Virus record (IMG/VR): IMGVR_UViG_3300033121_001167
Coordinates: 1 to 64,000 of that record
Reading direction: 5' to 3' (one strand)
From: a virus
Taxonomy: Duplodnaviria; Caudoviricetes
Length of the DNA: 64,000 bases
The notes under the pieces were generated by a model. The model saw nothing but the letters and a program-made list of their open reading frames with translations, made no database searches and had not been told where the DNA came from. Position 1 is the first letter of the stretch, and the number at the start of each line of letters is the position of its first letter. This document shows positions 2,387 through 26,959 of this stretch, piece by piece. Both the position numbers and the translations under genes were made by a program.

Positions 2387-2478
2387 CATCATACTTCGCT
2401 ATCGGTCGCCCACGACCTCTTTGCTTGTATGACTCATTTTATTTTTTTGCTCATAATGCTACGCAGATAACCCCTGAC
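2387..2478 (-). promoter_or_regulatory. Conserved non-coding element after the FGE stop (putative DGR IMH plus hairpin), copy A
   Basis: Matches 26866-26959 apart from 2 substitutions and a 2-nt homopolymer indel; contains the GGTCG-N4-CGACC hairpin at 2404-2417. Confidence 0.75.
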
Positions 2479-3135
2479 TCACCGGGAGGCGAGGCGGAAG
2501 CCGACATGGATGAGGCGGAGCGTCGGCTCGCCGTAGTTGCGATTAGCAGAGCGGCAGCTCCGAGCATCGTTGTACCAGCTGCCGCCGCGAAGCACGCGGT
2601 ACCCGCCCGAATCCGGTCCAGTCGGGTTGACCTGCGTCTCGGCGGGGTAGTCGCCATACCAATCGTTGCACCATTGCCACACGTTGCCGCTCATGTCGTG
2701 GAGTCCCAGTTCGTTGGGCTTTTTTGTGCCAACAGGGTGGGTTTGGGCGCAATCGTACCAAGCGACTTCTTCCAAGTCGTTGCTTCCTGCGTACAAGTAG
2801 CCTTTGCTTTGAACGCCGCCACGAGCAGCGAACTCCCACTCCGCTTCCGTCGGCAAACGATATTGCCGGCCCGTCAACGAGTTGAGTTTTTGGATGAACT
2901 CCTGACAGTCGTTCCAACTCACATTTTCTACAGGTAAGTCATCGCCTTTGAAATGGCTGGGGTTGTTACCCATGACCGCAAGCCACTGTGCTTGCGTCAC
3001 AGGGTATTTTCCGATCTCAAAATCGGGCAGTGTGATTTCGTGCTGACGCTCGTCGTCGTGGCGACCGGCTTCGCTTTCCGGGCTGCCCATCAAAAACGTG
3101 CCGCCTTGGACAAAAATCATTTCTATTTCGTTCAT
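2479..3135 (-). CDS. FGE-sulfatase (C-type lectin fold) protein, putative DGR target, copy A
   Basis: YRLPTEAEWEFAARGG, LHDMSGNVWQWC, RVLRGGSW...GFRLA; lacks the catalytic FGE Cys pair. Confidence 0.95.
   Translation of the reverse strand: MNEIEMIFVQGGTFLMGSPESEAGRHDDERQHEITLPDFEIGKYPVTQAQWLAVMGNNPSHFKGDDLPVENVSWNDCQEFIQKLNSLTGRQYRLPTEAEWEFAARGGVQSKGYLYAGSNDLEEVAWYDCAQTHPVGTKKPNELGLHDMSGNVWQWCNDWYGDYPAETQVNPTGPDSGGYRVLRGGSWYNDARSCRSANRNYGEPTLRLIHVGFRLASR
2482..2619 (-). repeat. Putative DGR variable repeat VR-A
   Basis: 26 mismatches against 26963-27100, concentrated at codon positions 1-2 of NNC/NNT codons. Confidence 0.85.
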
Positions 3136-3217
3136 AATATCGTTTGTTTTAAAAATTATAGTACAAAGGTATGTCCAAGTTCAAATGTCTCCAAACATTT
3201 TGGTACTGTTAACTTTT
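2905..3217. repeat. Exact direct repeat, copy 2
   Basis: Identical to 1-313. Confidence 0.97.
3164..3195 (-). promoter_or_regulatory. Bacteroidota-type promoter of FGE copy A
   Basis: Minus strand TTTG-N20-TACCTTTG, 28 nt upstream of the ATG. Confidence 0.75.
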
Positions 3218-3228
3218 GATTAACACTA

Positions 3229-3408
3229 TCAATCATTTAAAACTTGCCTGTTGCCTTTAGTCTGCCATTCCTTCAACTTTTGAAGCGAAATAGTCAATTC
3301 AGACACATTGGTAGATGGTGGATTAGTCAGCCAAAATCGTGTGGGTCGGCGATTTTCTTGGATTGCGGTCAAATCCGTCGTTAGTATCCAAACCTTTATT
3401 GTTTCCAT
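3229..3408 (-). CDS. Small hypothetical protein, 59 aa (METIKVWILTTD...)
   Basis: Translated by hand; below the ORF-track cutoff; fills the gap. Confidence 0.4.
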   Translation of the reverse strand: METIKVWILTTDLTAIQENRRPTRFWLTNPPSTNVSELTISLQKLKEWQTKGNRQVLND

Positions 3409-3568
3409 TTTTTAACTCCGTTATTTTTTGGATGATCCCTGCATGATACAACTGAAGTTCTTCCATATATTGCTGAACTTCCAGATGTTCGTATTGAACT
3501 ACCCCGAGTTCTTTATACGCCTCATCCATTGTAAAATTATTAATATTGTGAAAAGTCAATTTCATCAT
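3323..3568 (-). CDS. Hypothetical protein (start re-called at MMKLTF)
   Basis: 3' part of ORF 3323..3715; the upstream part overlaps the HNH-like gene. Confidence 0.5.
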   Translation of the reverse strand: MMKLTFHNINNFTMDEAYKELGVVQYEHLEVQQYMEELQLYHAGIIQKITELKNGNNKGLDTNDGFDRNPRKSPTHTILAD

Positions 3569-4106
3569 CTTGTTGCGGTTCGTATTGTTCGTAAATTTTA
3601 GTTTGTTCATCTTTGTAGTATCCACCGACCGGACGCAATTTTCCATAATATGAATTATAACAATTGTGGCAAACCAATTCCACGTTTTCGCGCCTAAAAT
3701 CACGTCGGTCTCCATTTTTGAAAACTAATATTGTCGGAGAGGCATTATCAAATAATCTGCGTTCAGAATAGCCACAAATTCCGCATTCATCCAAAAATTC
3801 CCCATCTTCAATGATTCTACGCTTAAATTCAGATTTTGGAAGACTTGGATGTGTACCATTTAAAAGTTCTGTACCACTTAACCGATACCGTTTTTTGGTA
3901 TGTACTGATGCGCCTTTTCTATGGCGATGGAGTTCAAACAGGCTTTTTCCCGTCTCTGCATCAATTACCATCTTGGCGTATTTATTATAAACTGCACACG
4001 AAACATGTAAAAACCGGGCGGCCTGTGAGTTATTGCCACTGTTTCGCATTGCATACCGAATTTCAGATTCGGTCAAATTGTATCGGGGACTTTTCCAAAA
4101 ACTCAT
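3540..4106 (-). CDS. HNH-like zinc-finger protein with N-terminal HTH-like region
   Basis: CGICG...NGDRRDFRRENVELVCHNC; the canonical HNH His appears substituted. Confidence 0.6.
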   Translation of the reverse strand: MSFWKSPRYNLTESEIRYAMRNSGNNSQAARFLHVSCAVYNKYAKMVIDAETGKSLFELHRHRKGASVHTKKRYRLSGTELLNGTHPSLPKSEFKRRIIEDGEFLDECGICGYSERRLFDNASPTILVFKNGDRRDFRRENVELVCHNCYNSYYGKLRPVGGYYKDEQTKIYEQYEPQQDDEIDFSQY

Positions 4107-4378
4107 GCTGTTAATTTATCCTCAATTACATGTAAAAACCAAACACAACCAGAAAGAAACATCGTATTCAAAAACCAGTTTGTGTTGAGATTAAACTCTG
4201 GGAAAATAAGATGAACAAAAAAACTGACCCACACAGATGTGCACAAAAAACAAGTCAGCAATTTATACAAAAATGGAATACGAGTAACAAACATCATACG
4301 GAATGGTTTAAAAAGATAACTTTCGCTGATGATTTGAGTTATTTGATATATTACTACTAAAATGAATACTAAATTCAT
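4103..4378 (-). CDS. DUF1360-like membrane protein
   Basis: LLTCFLCTSVW motif and hydrophobic helices. Confidence 0.6.
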   Translation of the reverse strand: MNLVFILVVIYQITQIISESYLFKPFRMMFVTRIPFLYKLLTCFLCTSVWVSFFVHLIFPEFNLNTNWFLNTMFLSGCVWFLHVIEDKLTA

Positions 4379-4611
4379 GTTACTTCAAATGATAAATTAT
4401 TTTTTACTAATTTCGCAGTAATATTTTGAATTTCTTCTATCGTGCCTTCAAATATTTTACATTTCCCATATGATTTCAATCTTTCCACGATGATATTTGC
4501 TTGAATTGGCAGTAATTCCATTTCCACTTTTAAAAAATGCACAATTGCATCATCGGGCATTTGACCACTTTTTAAAGTAATGTTATATTTTTTGTCTTTA
4601 CAACATGCCAT
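4375..4611 (-). CDS. ClpS-like adaptor protein
   Basis: Size and pattern (...QANIIVERLKSYGKCKIFEG...NLSFEV) resemble the ClpS core. Confidence 0.45.
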   Translation of the reverse strand: MACCKDKKYNITLKSGQMPDDAIVHFLKVEMELLPIQANIIVERLKSYGKCKIFEGTIEEIQNITAKLVKNNLSFEVT

Positions 4612-4727
4612 AGATTTTCCATCACTTCTAATGCAGTGTTACCAAATTGTGCATATATGCGCTGGTCATTGAATCCAACCCATCCAAACCAACATTCATT
4701 ATGTTGTTTGATATTAAATTTTAGCAT
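4572..4727 (-). CDS. Small hypothetical protein, 51 aa (MLKFNIKQHN...)
   Basis: Translated by hand; spans the gap between neighbours. Confidence 0.35.
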   Translation of the reverse strand: MLKFNIKQHNECWFGWVGFNDQRIYAQFGNTALEVMENLWHVVKTKNITLL

Positions 4728-5196
4728 TTCTTTTCCTATGATTTTCCAATTCTTTCATCAATTGTCTCCCAACATCGTATGCGGGCGAATACCATGAAAG
4801 ATCGGGTTCTTTTTTTGGTTTTTCTTCTGGAGGAGGTTCCTCGTCGGCAGCAGGTTCTTCTTCTGAAGGTTCGGGCTTCTCCTCTTCTTCTGGAGGTTTC
4901 CCAGTCATTTGGGCATTTAGTTTATCCAACGTAATTAGCCTACCACCAGCCTTTATTTTAGTGATGTTGCGATAATCAAATTCAGTCGCATTCCCAAACT
5001 CATCATACCCGACACCACGTCTAAAATTTTCCAAGTCGCTCAAATCTGATATAATATACCAGTCATCATTTGCATACACTTTCAGTGATACTTGCTGGTC
5101 TATATATTGTGCCAAAAATTTATTATCAAAATAATACATCGTCCGGGTTTCCTTTGTTTCGGTAATTATCTTTTTTATTTGGTTTTTCAGCCTCAA
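4714..5196 (-). CDS. Hypothetical protein with Glu/Pro-rich linker
   Basis: 160-aa ORF; PPEEEEKPEPSEEE low-complexity stretch. Confidence 0.75.
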   Translation of the reverse strand: MRLKNQIKKIITETKETRTMYYFDNKFLAQYIDQQVSLKVYANDDWYIISDLSDLENFRRGVGYDEFGNATEFDYRNITKIKAGGRLITLDKLNAQMTGKPPEEEEKPEPSEEEPAADEEPPPEEKPKKEPDLSWYSPAYDVGRQLMKELENHRKRNAKI

Positions 5197-5274
5197 TCTT
5201 TTTGGGCTTCTTTTTAATTTTGATTTTGGTTGGTTCCTGTTCCCACCCTTCCAAATCGTCGTGGATATTGATTT

Positions 5275-5598
5275 TCATCTTATTTGATCAACTTTCTCCA
5301 ATTTTTTTAAAATTTGTTCAATCGTATATTTCTGACCATTTTTATTAAATATACGAGTTTTTTCCAAAATATCAGTTCGGTTTTGATTGACTAATTCTTC
5401 AAAAATTACATATCCCGCTCCGCGATTGAATGTAGTGCGATATTTAGACGAATCTGCAATTTTTGAAAATAAAAAATGCCCAAACTGGTTAATTTCATGT
5501 TCAACATCGTGTAAATTATCGCCCGGAAATGTAATATAAATTACAACATTTGGTTTATCCAACCACTCAGGTTTATTTTTGGTGTCCATCCTAAACAT
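5275..5598 (-). CDS. Hypothetical protein, 107 aa
   Basis: Co-oriented ORF. Confidence 0.65.
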   Translation of the reverse strand: MFRMDTKNKPEWLDKPNVVIYITFPGDNLHDVEHEINQFGHFLFSKIADSSKYRTTFNRGAGYVIFEELVNQNRTDILEKTRIFNKNGQKYTIEQILKKLEKVDQIR

Positions 5599-6446
5599 TT
5601 TTTTGCAAGTGAATTATCAGCACATACGAAGTTTGGTTCATTTCGTGCGGGCAAATTTCTACGAGGATACTCCTTCCCCCCAATCATGTCGCATAATTCA
5701 TTGATCGAATATGTAGTTCCAGTTCCGATGTTGAACACACCAGACTCATTATAATTTGCTGCTAACATGTTTGCTTCAATTACATCGTCAATATTTGTAA
5801 AATCTCGGCGTTGTTCACCATTCCCACAAATAGTAAATGGCAGGCCGTCATATTTTTGATTTAAAAATGTTTGAAGGGCTTGCATATATGGTCCTTCACT
5901 GGTCATGTAATTGCCATAGACATTAAAATATCTAAGTATTTTTCCTTTCAACCCAAAATGCTCGCTATAAAATTTAATGTAGTTTTCAGCCACTAATTTT
6001 TGCATTGCATAGGGGCTGGTTGGGTTTGGAGTGTCCGATTCTTTACTTGGAGTATTTTTGTTTCCATATACTGAACTACTACCAGCAAATATGAAATTAT
6101 TTAATCCAGCAGCGCGACATGCTTCCAGCGCAATTGTTGTGCCATGCACATTTGTAAGATCATACAATGGAATATTGTCAAACGATGGTTGAACCCTCGC
6201 TTTTGCGGCTAAATGAAAAAATGCGTCGGCACCATCAATTTGTTTAGCCAACGAAGTTACCTTCATTTTACCAATGTCGTAGTAATAAAATTTGATGTGC
6301 CGAAGTAAACCAGCATCCAATGTTTTTTGATCTGTGGTTGAATAATTATCATACCCAATGACAGTATGACCTTCATCCAGACATCTTTTCATTAGATGCC
6401 TTCCGATAAATCCACAACAACCTGTTATAACTATTTTTTTACTCAT
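5541..6446 (-). CDS. NAD-dependent nucleotide-sugar epimerase/dehydratase (extended SDR)
   Basis: ITGCCGFIG, HLAA, SSSVYG, YAMQK, RYFNVYG, RRDFT. Confidence 0.95.
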   Translation of the reverse strand: MSKKIVITGCCGFIGRHLMKRCLDEGHTVIGYDNYSTTDQKTLDAGLLRHIKFYYYDIGKMKVTSLAKQIDGADAFFHLAAKARVQPSFDNIPLYDLTNVHGTTIALEACRAAGLNNFIFAGSSSVYGNKNTPSKESDTPNPTSPYAMQKLVAENYIKFYSEHFGLKGKILRYFNVYGNYMTSEGPYMQALQTFLNQKYDGLPFTICGNGEQRRDFTNIDDVIEANMLAANYNESGVFNIGTGTTYSINELCDMIGGKEYPRRNLPARNEPNFVCADNSLAKKCLGWTPKINLSGWINQML

Positions 6447-6448
6447 TT

Positions 6449-8506
6449 TTAACCAATGAAAGTGAATGATTTTTCAGTACTACCACCTGTCGTAGCATAA
6501 TTAATTGTTAAAATATTTCCGTTTGATGCAGTTGCAAAATTTGAAATGCCCGATTCTGGATATTTTGCGACTGCATATATTTTATTTACACTCTCGTACC
6601 AGTCAAACATAAAAGTTTTTGTCGTTCCGGAACCAGTCGTCGTTAAATTGTAAATGGAGTCGGTTGGAACATTGCTTCCAGACAAATAAATATCAACTTT
6701 ATAATCTACAGATGTTTGTGCGCAATTTAACAATGACCCAGTAACACGATTTATGTTTTGGTTATAGGTTATATAATCCGATTTCCACGACGGTCGTTGT
6801 ATCGTGGAGGGTAACATTGTGCCTGTAAGCGGGTCAAAATATTTTAATTTAATTTGGTTCAAATATACTGGCTGATTAGTATAATTTATATACCAATTTA
6901 ATAAAAACGGCGTAATTCTCAATGACAACTCCGTAGAAAATCCAATAAAAGAACTGGCACCAAAAAACGATGCAGAAACGCCATTAGACCCGGTGCTGGC
7001 ATAATAAAATATTGGTGAACTTGGAGCAGTAGCTGAATTATACTGATTTATTGAAATAGGCGAGTGCATATAGTACGAAGTCTTAATATCGGACGATATA
7101 CTACGAGTTGGACTGAAATTCTGAGTAGTTAGAAGCGCCACTGGTGCAGTAGAAGACCCTGTGGAAAAGTAAATAATATTATTATGTCCATATACCCCAC
7201 TTGGTAATTTACTACTACTATAATTTAAAAGTAAGTACCCAGAATAACCTATATCCGAGATTGTCGCCTGGCCATATATTCCAAAATTTAAAGTATTATA
7301 TCCTGCACTTAATTGATAATTTGAACTTGTTGCTGCTTGAGAATCAAATCTATGGTTTATAGTTGCTGGGCCACCAATTGCAGTGGATGTTCTAATATTG
7401 CTGTTCCCATACGGATAATTGAATACATTATTGATTACAACCGATTTTGTATAACCCGCTGATACAATTGGCATAGTCAATATTATTGCAGAATGACACA
7501 TGGACGGATTCAATTCTGGTATTAAAAAATTACACACTCCATAAATAGATGTATTATATCCAGTGTTAAGTTTATAAAAATCCTCATTAAATGGTACCAT
7601 CATACTGGACATTATTTGTGTGCTCAAATCAGACCGATAAGTATATGTTATACACACAGTTGGGCTAACATCGGCAAATCGTTGCAAAGATGAACTTGCT
7701 TTCAGGGTATGTGCAGTTGATGTATCTAATGTCCCGCTGACATTCTGAATGTCAAAATAATATGTATCAGAAGCCATAGAATTTTGTAGAACGAATCTAG
7801 CACTCGTTGATCCAGAATCTATCTGCGTAACTAATCTCGTTGTTGTATCTAATGACCTTGCACTATCATACCCAGTATATTGTATCCATATATCTTTGTA
7901 ATCTTTTGTGGATTCTGGTAAAAATGTGTCAAATGCTGGAATATTGGTATATCCGCCAATAGTTTTTCCAAACACTTGCCTACCACCCGCTCCAGCAAAT
8001 AACCATTGCTGATTAAAATTATTAGTATCTAATGGTAGGCGAACAGTTTTTATATTTGTTACTACATCTGTGTCATCAAATTGATATGTTGCTATCAGTT
8101 TGAAACTATGTCCTGTCCACATCCCAGAATTGGCGGCTGGAAATGAAAACCGTGGGGATACAACATGAGATGACCCCGTAAAACGAGTATTAAATAAGTT
8201 TGTAAAATTTTGTTTGTAAAATAATGTTGCATGATCTCCAGTCCCATTTATTGTTGATGTTGCTGCGGGAGCACCGCCCAAATTGCCATCAACCGAACAT
8301 GAAAAAGCGTAATTAGCAACACTCGCAATTGTTGTACCTGTATTAGCATCCCGCAAGTACATCTCTATATCTACACATAAAAAAGTCCGACTTCCAGTTT
8401 CTGGTATAAAAACTTGTTTATTTGATCCTGAGACTACAATAGAACCGCTTTGAGCAGATGTCAACGTTTCCCATCCATACTCAACCGTATTAATTCTGAA
8501 AGCCAT
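6449..8506 (-). CDS. Large Ser/Thr/Asn-rich beta-strand protein, probable virion/tail component
   Basis: 685 aa with a composition typical of tail proteins; adjacent to a tail-fibre-like gene. Confidence 0.55.
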   Translation of the reverse strand: MAFRINTVEYGWETLTSAQSGSIVVSGSNKQVFIPETGSRTFLCVDIEMYLRDANTGTTIASVANYAFSCSVDGNLGGAPAATSTINGTGDHATLFYKQNFTNLFNTRFTGSSHVVSPRFSFPAANSGMWTGHSFKLIATYQFDDTDVVTNIKTVRLPLDTNNFNQQWLFAGAGGRQVFGKTIGGYTNIPAFDTFLPESTKDYKDIWIQYTGYDSARSLDTTTRLVTQIDSGSTSARFVLQNSMASDTYYFDIQNVSGTLDTSTAHTLKASSSLQRFADVSPTVCITYTYRSDLSTQIMSSMMVPFNEDFYKLNTGYNTSIYGVCNFLIPELNPSMCHSAIILTMPIVSAGYTKSVVINNVFNYPYGNSNIRTSTAIGGPATINHRFDSQAATSSNYQLSAGYNTLNFGIYGQATISDIGYSGYLLLNYSSSKLPSGVYGHNNIIYFSTGSSTAPVALLTTQNFSPTRSISSDIKTSYYMHSPISINQYNSATAPSSPIFYYASTGSNGVSASFFGASSFIGFSTELSLRITPFLLNWYINYTNQPVYLNQIKLKYFDPLTGTMLPSTIQRPSWKSDYITYNQNINRVTGSLLNCAQTSVDYKVDIYLSGSNVPTDSIYNLTTTGSGTTKTFMFDWYESVNKIYAVAKYPESGISNFATASNGNILTINYATTGGSTEKSFTFIG

Positions 8507-8507
8507 A

Positions 8508-9446
8508 CTATGTTAAAATTTTTAAAATTAAATTTACCCGTGTAACTGTGGAAACGCTGTCCACATTAAATCTAATTACATCACCAGAACTTACGGTTTT
8601 AGTCCATGTCGTTAAATTTGTGTCAGAATTTGATGCCGCAGCACTTAATGTAGGTTTCTCCGATCCTGCAATGCTGTCTAAAACAGTCGGTGGAAAATTT
8701 GCAAATACGTCCTTCCAAACATCAATCACAATTGATCCTGCTTGGTCGGCAGTTAAATACCAAGCATTTATATATCCGTTAAATGGAATTGTTATATCCC
8801 CTTTAATTCCAGTAGTGATCACGCTACCTCCGCCATCAATCGTCAAGCCAACTGTTTTAATTTCTTGAAAATATGAAGCAGTCATTGCCGTATTCGCAAA
8901 ACTGGCACTAACACTCGGACTACCGGGAGCATAACTGGCCGATATTGCATACGAAGACGTTAGATATGTTCTAATTGTTCCTACATCTGCAATGGATCGG
9001 TCATTTGATTTTAAAAAACTTCCGTAATCATATCCATACTGAATTCCAAATTTATTACTACTTCCATCAAAAAATTTAGCAGTATCGCTTACACCATCCA
9101 ACGAAAAGATGTAAAATTCATCACCAGACTTTAGCCCTTTTATGATGGTCTGTTCGTTTGTGATATAAACAGCATAATTTGCATCTCCATATACACCAAA
9201 TTCTGAATTAAACGGCATTTTGAACTGCAAACCTCCGCTGATGATCGCCTGAACATTGGGTGCAGTTGTACCACTTCCACCATATATCCCACCACCTGTT
9301 GCAGCATAACTGGCAGATGTAGCAATGATTCCAGTCAATGCACTGCCATTACCCACAAACGCAGATGCAGTTACAGAATTTTCAACAAACAAATTTTGCA
9401 GTTCCGCATCACTTCCAGACCGAACTAACTTCTGCCATGTACTCAT
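8508..9446 (-). CDS. Tail-fibre-like protein
   Basis: SASYA/SASFA/TASY repeats; C-terminal IDGGGSVITTG...GSIVIDVWKD...GDVIRFNVDS module. Confidence 0.7.
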   Translation of the reverse strand: MSTWQKLVRSGSDAELQNLFVENSVTASAFVGNGSALTGIIATSASYAATGGGIYGGSGTTAPNVQAIISGGLQFKMPFNSEFGVYGDANYAVYITNEQTIIKGLKSGDEFYIFSLDGVSDTAKFFDGSSNKFGIQYGYDYGSFLKSNDRSIADVGTIRTYLTSSYAISASYAPGSPSVSASFANTAMTASYFQEIKTVGLTIDGGGSVITTGIKGDITIPFNGYINAWYLTADQAGSIVIDVWKDVFANFPPTVLDSIAGSEKPTLSAAASNSDTNLTTWTKTVSSGDVIRFNVDSVSTVTRVNLILKILT

Positions 9447-10723
9447 TATTTATTTTTAACTACGATTAGTTCGTTTTCATAATGCTCAAGTCGTTCAATA
9501 TTCAACTTCAAATTTCCCAGCTCCATGTAACCATATTCACCACTATCAGTCAAAATTTGAGATAGTAATGTAATATACTGAAAATCAGTCTGTGTGAACG
9601 TGTTTCCATCAATTTCAACGATGATGCCGGGAATTTTAAATGTTCCAGTAGGATTTATTTTGAGGTTTAAATCGCACCACGTCGTGTTTGGCTGTTCCTT
9701 TGCGATATATTTGCTTATTTCGGGTTGATTCAAATCACACACCAACGAATCACACCAAGGCTCCAGTGTTTGCAATAATTGGTAGTAACAATTTGTTATT
9801 TTGAAGCCGATGTTATATTTGTGCGAGATGATTGGATGTAAATACTCATCATGTTTAACCATTGACCCCCATTTCCTTATAAAATTTCGGGTTGATCGGA
9901 TATTTTGTTCCTCCCACTCGGGACTATTTGTTCCGACTTCTGTAAGATTCGGATTGAATCTGCTGCCTCTACAAGTTAAATGATAGACAAACCCATCCCA
10001 AGTTTGTATAAAGCAGTTTTTTCCAAATTTTAATTTGAATCTATTGAATATGTCGCTGTCTTCCTTTGATTGCGGTGCATACAATGGGTCGTGTCCACCG
10101 ATTTCTTTAAATTCATCTACCCAGAATGCCCACGGCGCAAATACTCCGTAAGTTATTTTTTCATGTATATAATTTTCTCGGTATATTTTAACCAAATCTA
10201 AAAGCGAATCTTCGTCAAAATTTTCAGGTTCTGTGCCAAAATCATCTACTAATTTTTCTGGACCGGATGGATGTAGTGGCGGTTCTATTCGGGTGAGAGA
10301 GACAATCCGGTTTTTATTTTTTATTGGCTTTGAAGCGAATGAAGAAACCGTCATACCAGATGGATATTGCTCACGTTTAAATTTCCAGTCATACATCAAT
10401 CTGTCAATTGCATCCAACGCATTTGGGCAAAGGTACATATCACTATGGAATATCATTGCAACTTCAGTTTCCACAATTTCATTTATAATTCGGTCATACA
10501 TAATGGTATGACCCAACCGCTTACCAGTTGTATTTTCTATTGATTTTACAAATGGATCAATTTTCTTTATTTCTTCAATCCACTCCCGTGTCCCGTCCTC
10601 ACAATGATCAATTCCATAACAAATCCAAACTTCATGGTCGCCTTGATTTTTACGGATAGAATCATAGGACCATTTCAAGTATTTAAGATTGTTCCGGGTG
10701 GATACTACTAAACTAATTTTCAT
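9446..10723 (-). CDS. Glycosyltransferase family 2
   Basis: ISLVVSTRNN, DHCEDGT, FHSDMY, EDSDIF. Confidence 0.9.
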   Translation of the reverse strand: MKISLVVSTRNNLKYLKWSYDSIRKNQGDHEVWICYGIDHCEDGTREWIEEIKKIDPFVKSIENTTGKRLGHTIMYDRIINEIVETEVAMIFHSDMYLCPNALDAIDRLMYDWKFKREQYPSGMTVSSFASKPIKNKNRIVSLTRIEPPLHPSGPEKLVDDFGTEPENFDEDSLLDLVKIYRENYIHEKITYGVFAPWAFWVDEFKEIGGHDPLYAPQSKEDSDIFNRFKLKFGKNCFIQTWDGFVYHLTCRGSRFNPNLTEVGTNSPEWEEQNIRSTRNFIRKWGSMVKHDEYLHPIISHKYNIGFKITNCYYQLLQTLEPWCDSLVCDLNQPEISKYIAKEQPNTTWCDLNLKINPTGTFKIPGIIVEIDGNTFTQTDFQYITLLSQILTDSGEYGYMELGNLKLNIERLEHYENELIVVKNK

Positions 10724-19065: not shown

Positions 19066-19895
19066 TATTTTAAGATTAGTGGAGCAATGATGTCAAAATT
19101 GACTTTAAACGATGATGTTGGTTTGATTGGTAAGTTCAGTTCGGAACCAATCCTTAACAATGTATCTTTTTTGACTGCATACAGTTCTTTTTCGGTTTTA
19201 AACAACATCTTGCACACGTCTAAAAACGATTTGGGAGACGGGTGCGCGGTCTTTGGATAAACTGAAGCCATAAATTGTCTATCAACAACGGACAATTCCG
19301 TATTTTCCTTTGTCGCAAATCCATCCATTGTCCAACTTGCTGGAAATGGGTACATCATAATAGATGATGTATCAGCTTCTGTCCCATTTGTTTGATCTTT
19401 GCTGTATTTATCCAGCACATTGTGACGAATGGTCGCTACATTCCAAGAATTGGGCGGTTTACTCAAGTCTTTGATAACATTTGCTTCATTCCATTTAATG
19501 CCACCTTTTGGATTTTGGTGTTCATGCCCCATACCAATCGCATGCCCAAATTCGTGGAGGACAACTCCTTTATCCAACCATCCCAGATTCAATGTTGGTT
19601 GGTTGGTTGGAATGTCCCTTGCATCGGTACCAATGTAAGACCATGCGCCATCGTTCTCATCAAATGCTACTCTAATTTCACTATTTACGTCTTCACTTCT
19701 AACAAATTGCAAATTTACTACATCCATCCAATCCTTTAGCGCATTCATCACAAATTGTTTTTGCGATTCTGTACCTTCCATAAATTTTACCCGCAGTTTT
19801 TGCCCGTTTGTCCAATATTTTTCTGGAAATGTGACGGCTTCTGCTGAACGAGAAGTTAACTGGATTGGTAATTCTTTATCAATACAAAATTTCAT
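19065..19895 (-). CDS. Metzincin zinc metalloprotease (astacin/M12A-like)
   Basis: HEFGHAIGMGHEH and SIMMY Met-turn; AWSYIG. Confidence 0.92.
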   Translation of the reverse strand: MKFCIDKELPIQLTSRSAEAVTFPEKYWTNGQKLRVKFMEGTESQKQFVMNALKDWMDVVNLQFVRSEDVNSEIRVAFDENDGAWSYIGTDARDIPTNQPTLNLGWLDKGVVLHEFGHAIGMGHEHQNPKGGIKWNEANVIKDLSKPPNSWNVATIRHNVLDKYSKDQTNGTEADTSSIMMYPFPASWTMDGFATKENTELSVVDRQFMASVYPKTAHPSPKSFLDVCKMLFKTEKELYAVKKDTLLRIGSELNLPIKPTSSFKVNFDIIAPLILK

Positions 19896-19984
19896 TTGTT
19901 ATTCTCCCAAAAATTATAAGTGTGTATATTAAAAGTAGTGATAAAACACTACAAAACAAAATTACGTCTAAAACTGCTGACCAT

Positions 19985-20227
19985 TTAACGGTTTTCATAA
20001 TTTTGACTTAGTTTAATGGCCTTTTTTATATTATGATCTGATAAGATGAAAATTAAATCGGAAATGTTAGTCCAAAAACACTTACCAGTCGTCTTAGTGG
20101 ATATTTTTGCACGATCTTCAAAAACATACTCCAAGACAAATCGCATTTGAGGTTTGGTCTGCCATTTTGTGTGGTAATTACAGCCAATTACAATGCTGGA
20201 TTCGGTGAAGTTATGAATCAATTTCAT
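19985..20227 (-). CDS. Hypothetical protein, 80 aa
   Basis: Co-oriented ORF. Confidence 0.55.
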   Translation of the reverse strand: MKLIHNFTESSIVIGCNYHTKWQTKPQMRFVLEYVFEDRAKISTKTTGKCFWTNISDLIFILSDHNIKKAIKLSQNYENR

Positions 20228-21000
20228 GACAAACGCAACATGGTGGTTTGGCAGTTATCATACAAATATTCGTAAGTTTTTTTAAGCCAATGATTTACGT
20301 TTTTCACACCACCTTCCATCGCATTAAAATGGTAAATTCCCGGAATATCAGTAAATAACATTCGGTCATCTAAAATATTCTTCCTTGATAAATCCTGCAT
20401 GTTAAACTGGTAGGGAAGCAATTTCACATAAATATCATTTTCGTTGGTAATTAAGTTGCAAATTGGCTGGTCAGTTCCGACCCCGTACTTCTTTTGCACT
20501 TCACGAACCTTTGAATCATTTTCCCAATAAAAATCCATCAACTTTTCGTGGAATAGTATGAAGGTCGGGTTCGTTATCATAAATCCAGTATTGAAATATT
20601 TCCAAATATCAAATTTCTTAGTAAAATGGGTTGGAAACTCGTGTTGATAGTTTTCAATGCTTCGTATAATCCAATCATAGTCTCCATCATTATGAACTGC
20701 ACAGAAATTATGGTCGCTCAATTCAAAGAAATTTGGGCAATGGGGATGGACAATCGTATCAGCATCAACTAAACAAACCTGATCCACGGCTTCACCTGCA
20801 AGCAATTTATGCCAGTAATGTCGGAAGTAAATCGGACTGACGGATTCCAATGGAAACAACGGCTCGTCTAATACCCGTAGTTCGCATTTATTTGCGTTAC
20901 ACCACACTTTCCATGACTCAATGGAGTATTTATACCCCTCCGAACTTTGGGGCTTGTGTGGGCTATTTATTGCGGTTATAAGAACGAAGTTATTTTTCAA
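20224..21000 (-). CDS. Glycosyltransferase, GT8-like
   Basis: LVDADT, YFNTGF, DQPICN, FNMQ, IYHF. Confidence 0.85.
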   Translation of the reverse strand: MKNNFVLITAINSPHKPQSSEGYKYSIESWKVWCNANKCELRVLDEPLFPLESVSPIYFRHYWHKLLAGEAVDQVCLVDADTIVHPHCPNFFELSDHNFCAVHNDGDYDWIIRSIENYQHEFPTHFTKKFDIWKYFNTGFMITNPTFILFHEKLMDFYWENDSKVREVQKKYGVGTDQPICNLITNENDIYVKLLPYQFNMQDLSRKNILDDRMLFTDIPGIYHFNAMEGGVKNVNHWLKKTYEYLYDNCQTTMLRLS

Positions 21001-21322
21001 TTTTATTACTCGGTTTATAAATTACACTTACTTCGGATTCTACCCAACAAACACTATCTTCATCAAATTTCCAACCCATCTCGTATGGAGTATAATTCGG
21101 ATGACTTTGTAATGCCCAATCAAACCCGATGAGTTTGCGATTAAATTCTTGAACTGCCCATATTTTGTACCAATATGGTTCAGGTCGCTCATTTTTAATA
21201 TATATCGGATCGTAATCTTCTGTAATTAGACGGAATATGCTATTGAAGATGGGAGTTCCGTCCTCATTTAAATTGGATGGGTGGGTCTGGATGTAATCCA
21301 ATAAAAATTGTTTTGCTGTCAT
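20990..21322 (-). CDS. Hypothetical protein, 110 aa
   Basis: Co-oriented ORF. Confidence 0.6.
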   Translation of the reverse strand: MTAKQFLLDYIQTHPSNLNEDGTPIFNSIFRLITEDYDPIYIKNERPEPYWYKIWAVQEFNRKLIGFDWALQSHPNYTPYEMGWKFDEDSVCWVESEVSVIYKPSNKIEK

Positions 21323-21489
21323 ATTGAAGTGTAAATTAAATATGCAATTAATGTAATTACAAATGATGTTAGTACATTGCGATAGTATATAACAATGCTT
21401 ATGTCGGGCATCATCCGAAGAGTTTTCAAAGACCTAAAATACATCCCAACATTACAAAGGATAAATAAAATAATGAACCAATAAACCAT
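21319..21489 (-). CDS. Small membrane protein, 56 aa (MVYWFIILF...)
   Basis: Translated by hand; two hydrophobic segments; ATGA coupling to the next gene. Confidence 0.5.
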   Translation of the reverse strand: MVYWFIILFILCNVGMYFRSLKTLRMMPDISIVIYYRNVLTSFVITLIAYLIYTSI

Positions 21490-21594
21490 TTAAAATGTTT
21501 GTTTTAGTGTTGTACGGCGAAATTTATAGCATATAATTAAAAATGCTATACCACCAAGAATCATAACAACGTCTTCGGTAATAATGTAGTGCAT
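21490..21594 (-). CDS. Small membrane peptide, 34 aa (MHYIITEDV...)
   Basis: Translated by hand; TAAATG coupling. Confidence 0.4.
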   Translation of the reverse strand: MHYIITEDVVMILGGIAFLIICYKFRRTTLKQTF

Positions 21595-21622
21595 ATTTTT
21601 TCCTTTTATTTAGTTAAAAATT

Positions 21623-22705
21623 TCATTTCAACATATTATTTAATTCTTTGGAAATATGGACACACGTTGCAATTTTTCCACTGAATATGGAATATAATTG
21701 ATTGTTGTGCTTTGTTATATAACTTGGGCGACCATCATCCTGTTCTCTGTTCGGAAGAACTGTCCGAACTGTGAACATTGAGCCAGCATAATATACATTA
21801 TCACTTGCAAAATTTGGTCGCTTTTCAGTTGTTGGAATTGTTGGACTGCCATTAAAATTGAAAAAGTCGCGGCTGGCATTGATTATTTGCTTATGATTTG
21901 AGTTAGTGTATCCTTTTGTAATACCACAATTCAAATATGGGCGAATTTCAGAAGGAACTGTAAAAAACTTGCCGACTTGCCGTTCATGTATTGCTTCCTT
22001 TACATGCCCCATAATGTGGTAATATTCATTAAACCCATGCGGATCAATACAACAAAACTCCCCATCCATAATTACCGCAGATTTTCCTTTCCATTCTCGC
22101 CCAACCGAAATAACGGGCTTTTCACACAATTCAAATTGATAATCAATATGGTCATCTTCTGATAGTAAGAAATTCAAATTTGAATAGGTGCAATTTATTA
22201 CAACATCAAATTCTGACATCATTTGTTTTGTGAATTGAGTATTTAATTTCACATCTATATTACACTTCCGCAATTTTTCGTTACAAATTAAATACAATTG
22301 CGCAATATCAAATGAATTTTCATGCACTTTGACGATCAAATCTAAATTTTCACATTTCAACAAATCAAGATTTTGAATTATTTCGTAATCAAGTTTGCTT
22401 GTTTCTAAAAATGTCAGGTATTGTTCTTTATCGGTCAGTGAATTGTTGGACGCAATCGCATAATATCTATCAACTCCGTGATTGACTATACACCCATCAA
22501 ATTCACGTTCAAATTCTTGGGTGGATTGTATCATTTCGTTTGAACGTGGATAATGGTATCCTCTATGCAATCTGTACTGATTACATCCACTTGCTGAATT
22601 TAAAATTCCAGACGACATTTCAAACAAAGTGATGTTGTGCCGTTCTGAAAGTTTTATCGCAGATGTAATTCCAAAAATTCCTGCTCCAACAACTGCTATT
22701 TTCAT
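21623..22705 (-). CDS. FAD-dependent oxidoreductase (DAO-like)
   Basis: KIAVVGAGIFG, RLHRGYHYPRS, SGKIAT. Confidence 0.9.
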   Translation of the reverse strand: MKIAVVGAGIFGITSAIKLSERHNITLFEMSSGILNSASGCNQYRLHRGYHYPRSNEMIQSTQEFEREFDGCIVNHGVDRYYAIASNNSLTDKEQYLTFLETSKLDYEIIQNLDLLKCENLDLIVKVHENSFDIAQLYLICNEKLRKCNIDVKLNTQFTKQMMSEFDVVINCTYSNLNFLLSEDDHIDYQFELCEKPVISVGREWKGKSAVIMDGEFCCIDPHGFNEYYHIMGHVKEAIHERQVGKFFTVPSEIRPYLNCGITKGYTNSNHKQIINASRDFFNFNGSPTIPTTEKRPNFASDNVYYAGSMFTVRTVLPNREQDDGRPSYITKHNNQLYSIFSGKIATCVHISKELNNMLK

Positions 22706-22749
22706 ATATCAATTCCACTCTAAATAGTATTCCAGAAAAATTTATACAT

Positions 22750-23145
22750 TTATTTTCTTAACGTTAAAGGCACTCTGGCCTGTATTGAAAAAATAGGTTG
22801 ATCCCGATAATAATCTACATTTATCAATAGACATTCTTTCCAATGTATTTCAAGATTGAGAGGAGTTATGTACCCTTTACCAACAGTATAATACATTGGA
22901 GGAAGTGCTACAAATACACTGAAATCCTTCACTTTAAATGCCCTAATCGCAAATTTCAAATCAATTCGGTGGTAATTGTCCAAATTACTATTTACAGTCA
23001 ATCTTGCAAACGCAATTTTTACATTAGACTCTGCATGGGCATTAAACATCCACGGGTCTTTGTCGGAAACAGTAAACCCGCCAAACACTTTATCTTGTGC
23101 AAGTGCAAGATTTGAAAGCAATAGAAAAAATGCGATTAGTCTCAT
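22750..23145 (-). CDS. Exported beta-strand-rich protein, possibly outer-membrane
   Basis: Signal peptide MRLIAFFLLLSNLALAQ; alternating hydrophobic strands. Confidence 0.5.
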   Translation of the reverse strand: MRLIAFFLLLSNLALAQDKVFGGFTVSDKDPWMFNAHAESNVKIAFARLTVNSNLDNYHRIDLKFAIRAFKVKDFSVFVALPPMYYTVGKGYITPLNLEIHWKECLLINVDYYRDQPIFSIQARVPLTLRK

Positions 23146-23919
23146 TTATACATATTTCGTTTTAATTAAATTCCAAACATCTTGCATTACCTGAACTCGC
23201 TGCTCAATAGGAAATCCAGTGAAATGCCATATTTTCCCATATTTTAGAAAATGCGGCCAAGTTCGTTCATCTTCCATAACAAACTGGTTCGGAAAAAGTT
23301 GCCAGTTGTTTATGAACATATTTTTTTTATGGATTGAAAGCAAATTCCATTCCGGAGTTAATAACTCAACCTCAACATTTAGTTTTTGAATTACAAAATT
23401 CAACAAGGTTTGCTCCTTACCTCCACCTACGATTGAGTCTATTTCAGATTGTCTGTTTAAATACAACCAACACAGTTCTTCAAATACTTTTAGGTTAGCC
23501 TTCCCGAAAAACAAAACTCCGGCGTTTAGATATTTAAACACATCCAATTTGACATTTGGGAAGAAATGCTGTCGCTGTCCAATGGATGAATACAGCCAAT
23601 TCAAGTCACACAAATCGTTTACACCGTACATTTTGTCAGGTTCAATTTGGTCAAAAATGTTTGGAGCATCCCAGCGGATCATCGTATCACTGTCAACAAT
23701 TCCGATTTTATCATAACCAACACCTTTTTGATAAATTAATTCCTTGGTCCATATAGGGTAAGTAAACCGCTTATCGTGCTCAGTACAAACAACCAAGTCA
23801 ATGTTGTGGTTTTTACAATAGTATTCCCACGTTTTAAGCGAATATACTGCATAATCCGAACATTGGATTTGTTTGGATGGGTCGTTTATGTTGACGATAT
23901 ATACGAGGGTTTTACTCAT
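23146..23919 (-). CDS. Glycosyltransferase, GT8-like (paralog of 20224..21000)
   Basis: IVDSDT, YLNAGV, EQTLLN, EWNL, IWHF. Confidence 0.85.
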   Translation of the reverse strand: MSKTLVYIVNINDPSKQIQCSDYAVYSLKTWEYYCKNHNIDLVVCTEHDKRFTYPIWTKELIYQKGVGYDKIGIVDSDTMIRWDAPNIFDQIEPDKMYGVNDLCDLNWLYSSIGQRQHFFPNVKLDVFKYLNAGVLFFGKANLKVFEELCWLYLNRQSEIDSIVGGGKEQTLLNFVIQKLNVEVELLTPEWNLLSIHKKNMFINNWQLFPNQFVMEDERTWPHFLKYGKIWHFTGFPIEQRVQVMQDVWNLIKTKYV

Positions 23920-24348
23920 TCAGTGCAATTTATGAAATTCGTTAATTGAATCAGATACATTTTCAACTTCAGTCACTACAAATGAATCCCATGTTGATTG
24001 TTTTATTCGCAATCTATACCACTGTTCCAATTGCATTTTATTGCTTAAAAATAATTGGTTTGGCTTCTTAATTAACTTCTTCAACAATCTTGGCTGAAAA
24101 TATTGGCAGGATTGGATTGAAGTTATTTCTATCTCCACACCATATTTGCTATATGGCGACTCGTGACAATATGCGACGAGTTCCAAATGATTTTGTTTTA
24201 ACTGTTCGGTATCTTCGTAGTGCATCAGTAAAAATGATATATTGTTATACTTAACATGAGTACAATGAACCAAAACAGTATCCACAAATGCGCGTTTAGT
24301 TCTTCTCGTTCCATAGAATGTTATACGTTTCATCAAACGTTTCCACAA
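23920..24348 (-). CDS. Hypothetical protein
   Basis: Co-oriented ORF. Confidence 0.55.
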   Translation of the reverse strand: MWKRLMKRITFYGTRRTKRAFVDTVLVHCTHVKYNNISFLLMHYEDTEQLKQNHLELVAYCHESPYSKYGVEIEITSIQSCQYFQPRLLKKLIKKPNQLFLSNKMQLEQWYRLRIKQSTWDSFVVTEVENVSDSINEFHKLH

Positions 24349-24562
24349 ATGAACCTAAGCAAACCAAACCAAGAAACACTACAAGTGTTTTACCAAGGAA
24401 ATGCCATTTAAACGGGTCTGGTTCGTTGCTTATAAAATAGCAAATACCATACGTCAGCAAAAATATCACAAAGTACAATACCAATGTTATTAAAAATGCA
24501 ATTAATGATTTCATTTTACAAAATTTTAATTTAGGTAATTTATGTGGGTTTCCAATAACCAA
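24296..24562 (-). CDS. Small membrane protein
   Basis: Two hydrophobic helices. Confidence 0.55.
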   Translation of the reverse strand: MVIGNPHKLPKLKFCKMKSLIAFLITLVLYFVIFLLTYGICYFISNEPDPFKWHFLGKTLVVFLGLVCLGSFVETFDETYNILWNEKN

Positions 24563-24791
24563 TTACACTCTTAACATTGTTATGATAAGCAGTGATAGTT
24601 CCTGTTTCAAATTTAATCGGGCTAAACACAAATCTGGTATAATTTGCATCTATTAATTCCTTCATAAACTCCACAGTTTCAAACTCGTCATCGCTCAGTT
24701 CATACCAATTTTGAGGTTTTGGTGATGGGCACCCATTCGTGTCAAGCAGTATCCCAACTGTATCAGATCGGCATATAATCAGTCTTTTCAT
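24540..24791 (-). CDS. Hypothetical protein, 83 aa
   Basis: Co-oriented ORF. Confidence 0.55.
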   Translation of the reverse strand: MKRLIICRSDTVGILLDTNGCPSPKPQNWYELSDDEFETVEFMKELIDANYTRFVFSPIKFETGTITAYHNNVKSVIGYWKPT

Positions 24792-25741
24792 CTTACAAAA
24801 TTTGGATGGTTGTGAATATGTTTTGGGTGGGGAACATCAATAAATTTGGCAAACTGTCCTTCGTCTTGTCTCGATGGCCTAATCATGACTTTTTTTGAGG
24901 TTGGTAATGGGCGGAGAACAAATTCAGTTCCTTCGAGCGAATCTGCCCATTTTTTGTGAACAAAATTATCTGAATTGTATCGTATTTTTTCCAATCCAGT
25001 TTCAAAGTCCTTCCAATACTGAGGATCGCTCCGATAAATGAGTTCATACCGAAGTTCCTTCCATTTGCCATTGACAAACCACGGATAATGTCGTACCCAA
25101 AACTTATCTGTGTATTTGAGTAATGGATAATTTTGCGACATAAATCCATCCATTGCCCGTCTGTAATTTTGCATATTATCAAAACAGTAACAAAAACGAC
25201 GGAATTTTGGGCTGACTTCGTTGATTGCTTCGCAATAATACTGCGTTTCAAGAAAGTCTCTCCAAACGCATTTTAGTCCTTCGCCGGGCATCAATTTTGA
25301 GATTTCCTCGCTAATAACATCTTTGTCTAATTCGTAAAGGAACGCATCCGGTTCCAATGGAAAAATGATTGTTCCTTCACTGACAAACGATTCTAAACCG
25401 TGTGTTATAGCATTCAAAAAGCATATATTTGCATCATAATTCTTATAGTCAATAATTTTACATTCAATATGTGGCAATTTGCCATCACCATCAAATTGGT
25501 TCCGTGTATATTCGGAAACAATATCTAACGTCATTTCATAATCAAATCCAGCATTGGTGTCTTCATAACACCATTTTTTGCGAAATTGGCTGTCAATCTC
25601 TTTCTTATTTTCAACGCCTCCCGGAAAAATACCAGTGTTTATAATTATTACATCGGGTTCAATTACATCTATCATGTTCTGAATCCAATACTTCAAGAAA
25701 TGGCTGCTGGCAAATTCTGGAATTATGACAATTTTTTTCAT
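24788..25741 (-). CDS. Glycosyltransferase-like protein (GT-A)
   Basis: IVIIPEF start and IFPLEPDAF (DxD-like); cluster context. Confidence 0.5.
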   Translation of the reverse strand: MKKIVIIPEFASSHFLKYWIQNMIDVIEPDVIIINTGIFPGGVENKKEIDSQFRKKWCYEDTNAGFDYEMTLDIVSEYTRNQFDGDGKLPHIECKIIDYKNYDANICFLNAITHGLESFVSEGTIIFPLEPDAFLYELDKDVISEEISKLMPGEGLKCVWRDFLETQYYCEAINEVSPKFRRFCYCFDNMQNYRRAMDGFMSQNYPLLKYTDKFWVRHYPWFVNGKWKELRYELIYRSDPQYWKDFETGLEKIRYNSDNFVHKKWADSLEGTEFVLRPLPTSKKVMIRPSRQDEGQFAKFIDVPHPKHIHNHPNFVR

Positions 25742-25971
25742 TGTATCTGCGTTATTTTATAGCAATTGTAATTCACATACGGATCCTCAAACTCATCAAC
25801 CTCCGCCTCATCCACTGCAACTAACAACTCCATAGAAATCAAGTTTTGAGCAATATATTTAGCCACAGTACATTTAAGCGCATCAAGTGTGATTTGTTGC
25901 TCTTCGTACACAACATCAAGATCAATATCAAGTTGTATTTTCATAAATGTATAACTCCAATCCCTCCCCAC
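25738..25971 (-). CDS. Hypothetical protein
   Basis: Co-oriented ORF. Confidence 0.45.
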   Translation of the reverse strand: MGRDWSYTFMKIQLDIDLDVVYEEQQITLDALKCTVAKYIAQNLISMELLVAVDEAEVDEFEDPYVNYNCYKITQIQ

Positions 25972-26591
25972 ATTTGATCTAAGTCGTTGGTGTCTGGATA
26001 GACTATTTCAGAGGTTTTATACTTCCCGCTTGCTTTCAATTCCTGCCAAAACTCACCGACATAAACATTTCGGTCATGGTGTCGTTTGGAGATTTGGATG
26101 TCGTGGAATGCAACAATGCCACCTTTCCGTACAAATGGGGAATAATCTATCCAGTCTAACTTAACTCCGTTGTATGAATGATCCCCGTCAATGAAGAGAA
26201 AATCAATAAATGGCTTAGTGGTTTTAGAACCAGATAGTGATAATAATTCGGCTTGAGTTGCGGTGCTGTGACTATTTCCACGAATGAACTTACAATTCTT
26301 AAATTTAGTTTTGAACCATTCATCCCGATCATCCATTTCCTTCTCGCTGATCCCTCCGTGAATTCCGCCATCACTTACATCAATTGAAATGTTCAGTCCA
26401 TCCCAATTAATAGAATTCCACAAATAGAAAGTTCCGCCATACTTTGTCCCGATTTCCAGAATGTTGTATGGTTGAGTTGTATCGCGGCCGTCAAAGTGAC
26501 GAGAGACTAAATCATACAATTCAGTTATTTCCTGACGGATTTGGGGCATATAAAGTGAATATGCTGTGTTTATATTATGTTCGTTATTCAT
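25941..26591 (-). CDS. Class I SAM methyltransferase (Methyltransf_24)
   Basis: ILEIGTKYGGT, LFIDGDHSY, GGIVAFHD. Confidence 0.92.
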   Translation of the reverse strand: MNNEHNINTAYSLYMPQIRQEITELYDLVSRHFDGRDTTQPYNILEIGTKYGGTFYLWNSINWDGLNISIDVSDGGIHGGISEKEMDDRDEWFKTKFKNCKFIRGNSHSTATQAELLSLSGSKTTKPFIDFLFIDGDHSYNGVKLDWIDYSPFVRKGGIVAFHDIQISKRHHDRNVYVGEFWQELKASGKYKTSEIVYPDTNDLDQMWGGIGVIHL

Positions 26592-26835
26592 TAGTTTCTT
26601 TAAATATTTTCATCAGTACATCCGAGCCTCCACACACTTCAAAATTAGTTTGAGCGTCCCGAAAATCGTACTGAGCCAAACGTGTTTGGGTTTTAACGTG
26701 TGCAAGAATATCATCTACATTATCAAGCGCAGATACAGTTGACAATAAAGTCAGCATCGTCGTCTCCACTTTATCGGCGACATTAAGACGAATTAACATA
26801 TCAACTTGTTCGTCGGTAAACTGATTGTAGCACAT
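26584..26835 (-). CDS. Hypothetical protein, 83 aa
   Basis: Co-oriented ORF. Confidence 0.55.
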   Translation of the reverse strand: MCYNQFTDEQVDMLIRLNVADKVETTMLTLLSTVSALDNVDDILAHVKTQTRLAQYDFRDAQTNFEVCGGSDVLMKIFKETNE

Positions 26836-26865
26836 AATTAAATTTTTGTTTTAACATTCGTCATC

Positions 26866-26959
26866 CATCATACTTCGCTGTCGGTCGCCCACGACCTCTT
26901 TGCTTGTATGACTCATTTCATTTTTTTTTGCTCATAATGCTACGCAGATAACCCCTGAC
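26866..26959 (-). promoter_or_regulatory. Conserved non-coding element after the FGE stop (putative DGR IMH plus hairpin), copy B
   Basis: Near-identical to 2387-2478; hairpin at 26883-26896. Confidence 0.75.

Follow-up and report, generated by a model that had tools for sequence, protein, structure and literature searches.

The 64,000-nt window analysed here (positions 1 to 64,000 of IMG/VR virus record IMGVR_UViG_3300033121_001167, Caudoviricetes) carries two FGE-sulfatase genes, A and B, each followed by a copy of a nearly identical non-coding tail. The original prediction held that this tail is more conserved than the genes it follows, and that it is the cis-acting homing signal of a diversity-generating retroelement (DGR), with an initiation of mutagenic homing (IMH) sequence and a hairpin, that makes each gene cassette portable. 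Cassette genes and tails lie on the minus strand, and coordinates are those of the window unless another contig is named. The features at the two loci, including the variable repeats (VRs) of the genes, are as follows.

Gene A, 2479..3135, minus strand: 218 amino acids, FGE-sulfatase / C-type-lectin fold (PF03781, E=1.5e-54).
Gene B, 26960..27697, minus strand: FGE-sulfatase (PF03781, E=5e-53); its database copy (P0004) starts at the ATG at 27634 and has 224 amino acids.
VR of gene A, 2488..2610, minus strand: 5' limit approximate; ends in the GC-rich 15-mer GGCTTCCGCCTCGCC.
VR of gene B, 26969..27091, minus strand: limits approximate.
GC-rich 15-mer GGCTTCCGCCTCGCC, 2488-2502 (A) and 26969-26983 (B), minus strand: 12/15 G+C, inside the coding region.
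Predicted IMH-like segment, 2468..2502 (A) and 26949-26983 (B), minus strand: 35 bp, made up of the 15-mer, the last two codons, the stop and the first 11 tail nucleotides.
Tail A, 2387..2478, minus strand: 92 nt, non-coding, 3' of gene A, type-1 end (pairwise alignment).
Tail B, 26866..26959, minus strand: 94-nt copy (pairwise alignment).
Proximal conserved block, 2441..2481 (A) and 26922..26962 (B), minus strand: runs from the stop codon through the 30-nt block GTCAGGGG...ATGAGC into the first As of the A-run.
30-nt block, 2449-2478 (A) and 26930-26959 (B), minus strand: directly after the TGA stop.
A-rich spacer, 2437..2448 (A) and 26916-26929 (B), minus strand: length varies.
Distal imperfect stem-loop, 2389..2432 (A) and 26868..26911 (B), minus strand: outer arms TCATAC / GTATGA.
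Inner hairpin GGTCG-TGGG-CGACC of tail A, 2404-2417, minus strand.
Conserved motif CGACCGATAGCGAAGT in the distal stem-loop of tail A, 2393-2408, minus strand.
Intrinsic terminator after tail A, 2340..2381, minus strand: 12-bp stem, 10-nt loop and T-run (read from the sequence).

Pairwise alignment of the two tails yields exactly two substitutions and one 2-nt indel, which lies in the A-run; the next mismatch is at 2386, after which similarity collapses. The near identity and abrupt end first reported are thus confirmed, and the minus strand reads as described then: the TGA stop, the 30-nt block, the A-rich spacer, and a 44-nt stem-loop composed of TCATAC, a 9-nt gap, GGTCG-TGGG-CGACC, a second 9-nt gap and GTATGA. 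The heptamer TGAGTCA does occur twice in each tail, and the tails account for four of the six minus-strand sites in the 79-kb contig to which the window belongs. Because third codon positions of genes A and B outside the VR are only 72% identical, the conservation of this tail pair exceeds neutral expectation and chance (P about 1e-10 for at most 2 differences in 90 nt of tail, given that 72%). A coding or read-through origin was ruled out, since the indel shifts the frame between the two copies, so that the spacer is not coding, and standard-code open reading frames (ORFs) tile the contig. The terminator at 2340-2381 lies outside the repeat and has no counterpart after tail B; an automated terminator scan overlooked it because its loop exceeds 8 nt. 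It is a strong terminator, located between cassette A and the lysis genes (amidase, 881-1561).

Comparisons among cassette copies, scored over a 111-nt VR core (about 2488-2598 in A), reveal identities of 65-81% at codon positions 1-2 and 92-100% at position 3. Third positions of the scaffold are 72-86% identical, and the pattern in the VR is the reverse of the scaffold's. The variable codons are of the NNC/NNT type, as AAC/AAT template codons would give, and the hypervariable codons end immediately 5' of GGCTTCCGCCTCGCC in both A and B. Public proteins with near-identical scaffolds likewise differ mainly or only in the VR. The reversed codon-position pattern is an indirect signature of variation confined to adenines of a template repeat (TR), and the C-type-lectin / FGE-sulfatase fold with a C-terminal VR is that of a DGR target gene. 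Judged by this VR signature, genes A and B are DGR-type targets. Gene A is 57% GC in a contig of 36% GC.

The genomic context of the window was extended with the following contigs and cassette copies.

Contig of the window (G000): 79,249 nt.
Sister contig (G001, also L016; IMG/VR contig 3300033121_000954): 127,036 nt.
Copy C, 5' part, window 1..313, minus strand: 77 codons and the 82 nt before them, with 100% identity to 2905-3217.
Copy C, 3' half, sister contig 126682-127036: truncated gene at the contig end, with VR and type-2 end and no tail.
Copy D, sister contig 27939-28714: cassette with tail.

The two contigs share almost no sequence besides the cassette. However, the last 77 nt of the window's contig (79173-79249) match the first 77 nt of the sister contig (1-77) exactly, the last 77 nt of the sister contig (126960-127036) match window 2757-2833, and the first 77 nt of the window (1-77) match sister-contig positions 28469-28545. 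From these exact de Bruijn end overlaps it follows that they are neighbouring contigs of one k=77 assembly, with breaks in a tandem repeat and in the repeated cassette. The joined map is circular and about 206 kb long, which fits the completeness estimates of 41% and 69%, and it holds four cassettes, C, A, B and D. The last ORF of the window's contig (397 amino acids; about 78017-79249, plus sister contig 1-542) contains a ~168-nt tandem repeat, at which the assembly breaks.

Window 1-313 and the end of the sister contig are best read as halves of one gene, copy C, which we infer by elimination and in which about 71 nt, inside a triple repeat, are absent. A 225-nt tract of gene A (2757-2981) is identical to copy D (sister contig 28393-28617) and presumably occurs in C too. 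No difference separates copies C and D in the final 262 nt of the sister contig, which cover all the available C scaffold; in the VR they differ at 19 of 111 positions with third positions 97% identical. Copy C thus matches A in its 5' half and D in its 3' scaffold, which indicates a precise recombinant and active gene conversion among the cassettes. The cassettes are mosaic, and the original claim that the tail is more conserved than the genes therefore stands for the A-B pair only, as A and D share 225 identical gene nucleotides.

Cassettes A, B and D have non-homologous neighbours and location-specific upstream promoter regions, but share the tail; therefore the mobile unit, as delimited by these comparisons, is the ORF plus the tail, with a G+C content of 53-57% against 36% for the genome. 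Tail D differs from tail A at three positions, two of them inside the small hairpin, and it shares with tail B a further 23 nt, down to window 26843. Upstream of gene A, a promoter-like region (TTGAAC-18-TATAAT at 3155-3184; region window 3144-3224) has at least six look-alikes of 73-86% identity in the sister contig (97265, 115629, 117097, 118852, 119397 and 121822). This upstream region appears to be a repeated phage promoter element, acquired locally by the cassettes.

The 92-mer search proposed with the original prediction recovers A and B in the window's contig and D in the neighbouring contig. One more copy lies on a metagenome contig (L093), and all four follow cassette genes. Scans with 30-, 24-, 20-, 17- and 15-mers and a gapped stem-loop pattern found no further tail copies in the genome, IMG/VR, JGI metagenome contigs, GTDB genomes or INPHARED, and matches to the 15- and 17-mers elsewhere were all rejected as chance matches. 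The concern that the element might be a generic repeat is thereby answered: the tail is real, non-random and linked to VR-bearing cassettes. No INPHARED phage matches the cassette at the DNA level, and the best proteins there reach at most 48% identity. The more distant IMG/VR homologues L014 and L015 were rejected as tail carriers because their 3' flanks are unrelated; neither has a reverse transcriptase (RT).

FGE-sulfatase genes occur in other phages as well. Microcystis phages Ma-LMM01, MaMV-DC and relatives (INPHARED H2-H10; 160-180-kb cyanophages) carry 2-4 each, with 43-48% identity to gene A and annotated as 'kinase' or hypothetical. A metagenome contig (L094; ERZ891418 NODE-15940) has three VR-like repeats in tandem at 100-540, 129 and 157 nt apart, which belong to another FGE-sulfatase family; it represents either one gene with several VRs or VR variants that were assembled wrongly.

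Close cassette relatives in ENA, Logan and JGI (P0001, P0002, P0006, P0008 and P0121-P0128) fall into two end types. Type-1 proteins terminate in ...GFRLA(S/L)(Q/R) before the stop, and type-2 proteins in ...GFRLALAPQSVG. Copy C has the type-2 end: it encodes LAPQSVG before its stop, diverges completely after the GC-rich 15-mer, and is followed by an unrelated AT-rich inverted repeat. A profile of the tail (nhmmer) aligns to copy C only weakly (E=0.097) and only at model positions 2-44, corresponding to the 15-mer plus ~27 nt. These ~27 nt are the only part of the tail common to both end types, and the length of the shared stretch, 15-mer included, fits a canonical ~34-bp IMH. VR-concentrated variation on near-identical scaffolds is found with both ends (P0001, P0122 and P0124 for type 1; P0121 versus copy C for type 2). 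Within IMG/VR, a scan with the type-2 end pattern returned copy C only. Two type-2 proteins from ENA, P0006 and P0008 (both on 62,585-nt contigs), are each unchanged on 11-14 contigs, which means that static copies exist in some populations.

Copy C bears directly on the proposal that the tail is the cis signal making the cassette portable. The tail is found behind VR genes only and moves with the ORF, but copy C, which lacks it, still shows VR-type variation, an outcome that had been named in advance as incompatible with the proposal. Since type-2 copy C varies without the tail, the distal part at least is dispensable for diversification.

The same end types argue against a recombination site, whether attC-like or otherwise site-specific, or the transcript end of a retro-copied gene, as the 3' edge of the mobile unit. 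A promoterless ORF joined to an imperfect inverted repeat (92-115 nt), whose sharp edges are the start codon and the end of the tail, is what such a site would leave, and integron cassettes with attC (59-base elements) resemble the phage cassettes in having a promoterless ORF that an imperfect inverted repeat (~60-140 nt) follows and accompanies into new contexts. However, the type-2 cassette moves without the tail, and the 3' edge is not constant, lying after 92 nt in A and after 115 nt in B and D. The tail also lacks the R''/R' cores of integron cassettes: no RYYYAAC / GTTRRRY core is present at either tail end, the nearest sequences being GTTATCT and GTTAAAA, and the tail was rejected as an integron attC on these grounds. 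A Pfam scan of ten ORFs flanking cassettes A and B, which was not genome-wide, showed no integrase, and no RT was found. We regard a recombination site as extremely unlikely.

The copy on L093, a 1,885-nt GC-rich contig found with the VR-framework pattern, provides a more distant comparison. The scaffold of its FGE-sulfatase gene is 68-70% identical, with third positions 51-56% identical, and third positions in the VR are 95-97% identical, a rise that begins at the 5' edge of the VR. From the stop codon on, 38 of 41 nt are identical to the phage tails (P about 8e-8); a rearranged stretch follows and then CGACCGACGGCGAAGT, identical at 15 of 16 positions, with the motif CGACCGAYRGCGAAGT kept. 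Given scaffold third positions of only 51-56%, the 41-nt block evolves with the template and not with the gene. The bases immediately 3' of the VR keep pace with the VR framework that the template homogenises, as an IMH-type signal should. Homogenisation of the VR by a near-identical template would account for the identity edge at its 5' limit. Under the BPP-1 model, in which transfer stops within the GC run (PMC3240598), the tail itself lies beyond what a template could account for, and selection is the simplest reading of why the proximal tail was kept in L093.

Within the L093 tail, an intact 22-codon ORF, MSKKAPHTATKRVRREGRPTAK, lies at 463-531, starting at the ATGAGCAAAAA end of the proximal block; its GRPTAK-coding motif is the conserved CGACCGAYRGCGAAG. 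In the phage copies a TGA interrupts this ORF and the A-run indel shifts its frame. A transposase beside the L093 gene was considered and rejected, as the ORFs there have no Pfam match.

The main rival to a selected signal is that the tail is a passenger 3' untranslated region (UTR) of a recently spread cassette, with no function of its own and kept uniform by gene conversion among the four copies. The mosaic cassettes, with their 100%-identical tracts and exact recombinants, are compatible with such a history. Both end types also accompany one and the same VR tail-end peptide (P0001 versus copy C), which places breakpoints between VR and tail. However, conservation in L093 is patchy (38/41, then rearranged, then 15/16), whereas recent descent would be uniform. 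Moreover, identity rises exactly at the VR 5' edge, which template homogenisation accounts for and a chance tract does not, and the A and B tails are more alike than their adjacent non-variable coding DNA. As part of this rival, the distal stem and A-run could be a decayed convergent or antisense terminator from a GC-rich donor. The opposite strand has a T-run after the stem in every copy, L093 carries a 14-bp GC stem followed by T5 and facing convergent ORFs, copy A needed a separate downstream terminator, and the inner hairpin decays in D and L093. On balance, we consider a mere passenger possible but somewhat unlikely.

The tail was rejected as a terminator on the sense strand, because no T-run follows the stem on the coding strand and a terminator scan flags only the opposite strand, weakly. 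Like intrinsic terminators, the tail has a stem-loop beside a homopolymer run directly after a gene. Unlike them, its A-rich run lies 5' of the stem on the sense strand, which would permit antisense termination only, the stem interior spans 32 nt, and copy A has its separate canonical terminator at 2340-2381.

The inner hairpin was originally proposed to be the homing hairpin, a claim that the comparison with published hairpins does not support. Published DGR hairpins have a 7-10-bp GC stem and a GRNA loop, and lie 4-34 bp from the VR (PMC3240598). The stem-loop boosts homing but is not strictly needed (PMC12875486), and one is detectable in only 34% of DGRs (PMC5758913). The phage hairpin has a 5-bp stem (GGTCG/CGACC) and starts 61-63 nt past the stop codon, the published 4-34 bp being counted from the VR end; no other small hairpin with perfect pairing lies in the 180 nt after the stop. 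Its 4-nt loop, which reads TGGG in tails A and B but TTGG in tail D, is not GRNA. Nor is pairing maintained among related targets: copy D reads GGTCG-TTGG-CGGCC, with a T.G mismatch, and L093 has GGGAG in place of the GGTCG 5' arm, leaving three of five pairs. The outer stem of the phage tails is matched only in part in L093, where the region as a whole lies within a new GC stem of 14 bp. The A-rich spacer varies as well: A and D have A7TA4, B has A9TGA3 and L093 has A5.

Folding, the check suggested for this structure, gave a divided result, with z=-3.3 for a 53-nt piece containing the distal stem-loop but only -0.7 to -1.7 for the whole tail. Long-range pairing of the VR end with the distal stem was no better than in shuffles. 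These data also bear on whether the tail acts at the RNA level, as a 3' stem-loop against exonucleases, as a processing site, or as a block on antisense transcription into the VR gene. The tail lies between the stop codon and a terminator (A) or the next gene (B and D) and is therefore transcribed with the gene. The A-to-G stem change in D gives a G.U pair in the sense RNA and a C.A mismatch on the other strand, and the three proximal substitutions in L093 keep or improve a small hairpin, UUAUCUG / CAxxAUGA. Nevertheless, whole-tail RNA folds are unremarkable (z -1.3 to -2.1), the L093 helices are not homologous pair for pair, type-2 cassettes manage without the tail, and a search of five loci against Rfam gave no credible family match at E<=1. 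An RNA-level element is, in our view, very unlikely.

The candidate signal on the 5' side of the tail was compared with the published IMH. An IMH comprises about 34 bp, the first 14 of which are GC-rich, and marks the 3' limit of A-mutagenesis (PMC5758913). Such a segment at the 3' end of the VR, with a GC-rich start at the limit of A-mutagenesis, is found in GGCTTCCGCCTCGCC and the nucleotides that follow it; the length of our IMH-like segment was set by analogy with BPP-1 (PMC5758913). By this analogy, the IMH should start inside the gene at GGCTTCCGCCTCGCC and reach only about 11-15 nt into the tail. The IMH originally assigned to the tail is therefore retained in part: the proximal tail is conserved in L093 as an IMH-type signal should be, but the IMH is expected to begin within the gene.

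Profile searches of both contigs, and thus of the ~206-kb map, found neither an RT (PF00078) nor Avd (PF05635), and an RT motif pattern also found none. A search for a TR by blastn (word size 7) of the cassette against the contig returned only VRs, as did a VR-framework pattern with N at the variable sites in IMG/VR, JGI metagenome contigs and GTDB genomes. The cognate RT and Avd that would accompany a DGR target gene are thus absent from the same element, and an acting DGR would therefore have to be encoded elsewhere. Trans action of avd-TR-brt has been demonstrated experimentally and non-adjacent DGR targets are known (PMC5758913), although Wu et al. 2018 expected no remote targets for phage-associated DGRs (PMC5758913).

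We hypothesize that the tail is the 3' module of the type-1 allele of a mobile, recombining DGR-target cassette, with a proximal part that is probably IMH-type and a distal part that is accessory or a relic; we assign this reading a probability of roughly one half. The cassette would consist of a promoterless FGE-sulfatase ORF plus the 92-115-nt tail, horizontally mobile and recombining. Its proximal part would continue the VR through the GC-rich 15-mer, the final two codons and the stop, and on into the tail for roughly 11-40 nt, and most likely serves as an IMH-type recognition sequence for a DGR acting on the cassette. That DGR would be encoded elsewhere, since the phage genome lacks RT, Avd and TR, and template homology would run past the 15-mer through GTCAGGGGTTA. 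The distal part, an A-run and the 44-nt imperfect stem-loop with the motif CGRCCGAYRGCGAAGT, is type-1-specific and may be either an accessory efficiency-type element in place of a post-VR inverted repeat or a relic of the donor genome. The conservation, the distribution, the cassette boundaries, the VR signature and the lack of DGR machinery are direct results; the IMH role, the trans action and any part played by the stem-loop are inferences.

Several findings weigh against this hypothesis. Copy C and other type-2 proteins have diversified without the tail, and the distal hairpin departs from published DGR hairpins in stem length, loop sequence and conservation and apparently in distance, agreeing only in loop length, with the structure signal of the whole tail being weak. 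Evidence of selection on the tail comes from one distant relative, L093, and gene conversion, as the A-D identity and the copy C recombinant imply, could keep the A, B and D tails alike without selection. Service of the phage in trans by a foreign DGR is itself an assumption.

A bolder version would make the type-1 tail a portable 'landing pad', consisting of an extended IMH and a non-canonical long-loop stem that bears a conserved motif, for a host or co-resident DGR that would diversify the phage genes in trans. This proposal is doubtful, but if true the tail would found a new class of DGR target-recognition element, and phages would be using DGRs in a new way. The main interest lies in the RT-less, multi-target phage setting, in which one genome holds four cassettes, three with one 3' module and one with another, and none with an RT. 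As the four have in common only about 40 bp after the last variable codon, they offer a comparison for the minimal target signal, and the set also bears on the question of trans action between replicons. Were the proximal tail sufficient, it could provide a compact tag to aim DGR-based diversification at chosen genes.

To our knowledge, only the target signals of the BPP-1 and Legionella DGRs have been dissected, and the way in which DGR cDNA locates and enters its target is not yet settled. The BPP-1 IMH and hairpin (Guo et al. 2011, PMC3240598; Wu et al. 2018, PMC5758913) resemble the phage cassettes in that conserved sequence lies directly 3' of a C-terminal VR, a GC-rich run marks the end of the hypervariable codons, an inverted repeat lies further downstream, and the module is portable with the target gene. 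Unlike BPP-1, the phage has no RT and no TR, at whose 3' end an IMH* nearly identical to the IMH would lie, and its GC run contains three Ts. Its hairpin has 5 bp instead of 7-10 and a TGGG/TTGG loop instead of GRNA, lies 61 nt past the stop versus 4-34 bp from the VR end, sits in a larger imperfect stem, and is not conserved. The conserved tail extends over 92-115 nt, compared with the 24-35 bp needed in BPP-1. A second comparison is with Treponema denticola and other remote DGR targets (PMC5758913). Although the targets studied here reside in a phage whose ~206-kb map has no RT, Avd or TR, they are like those remote cases in that several targets have one VR framework and the RT is distant or not adjacent.

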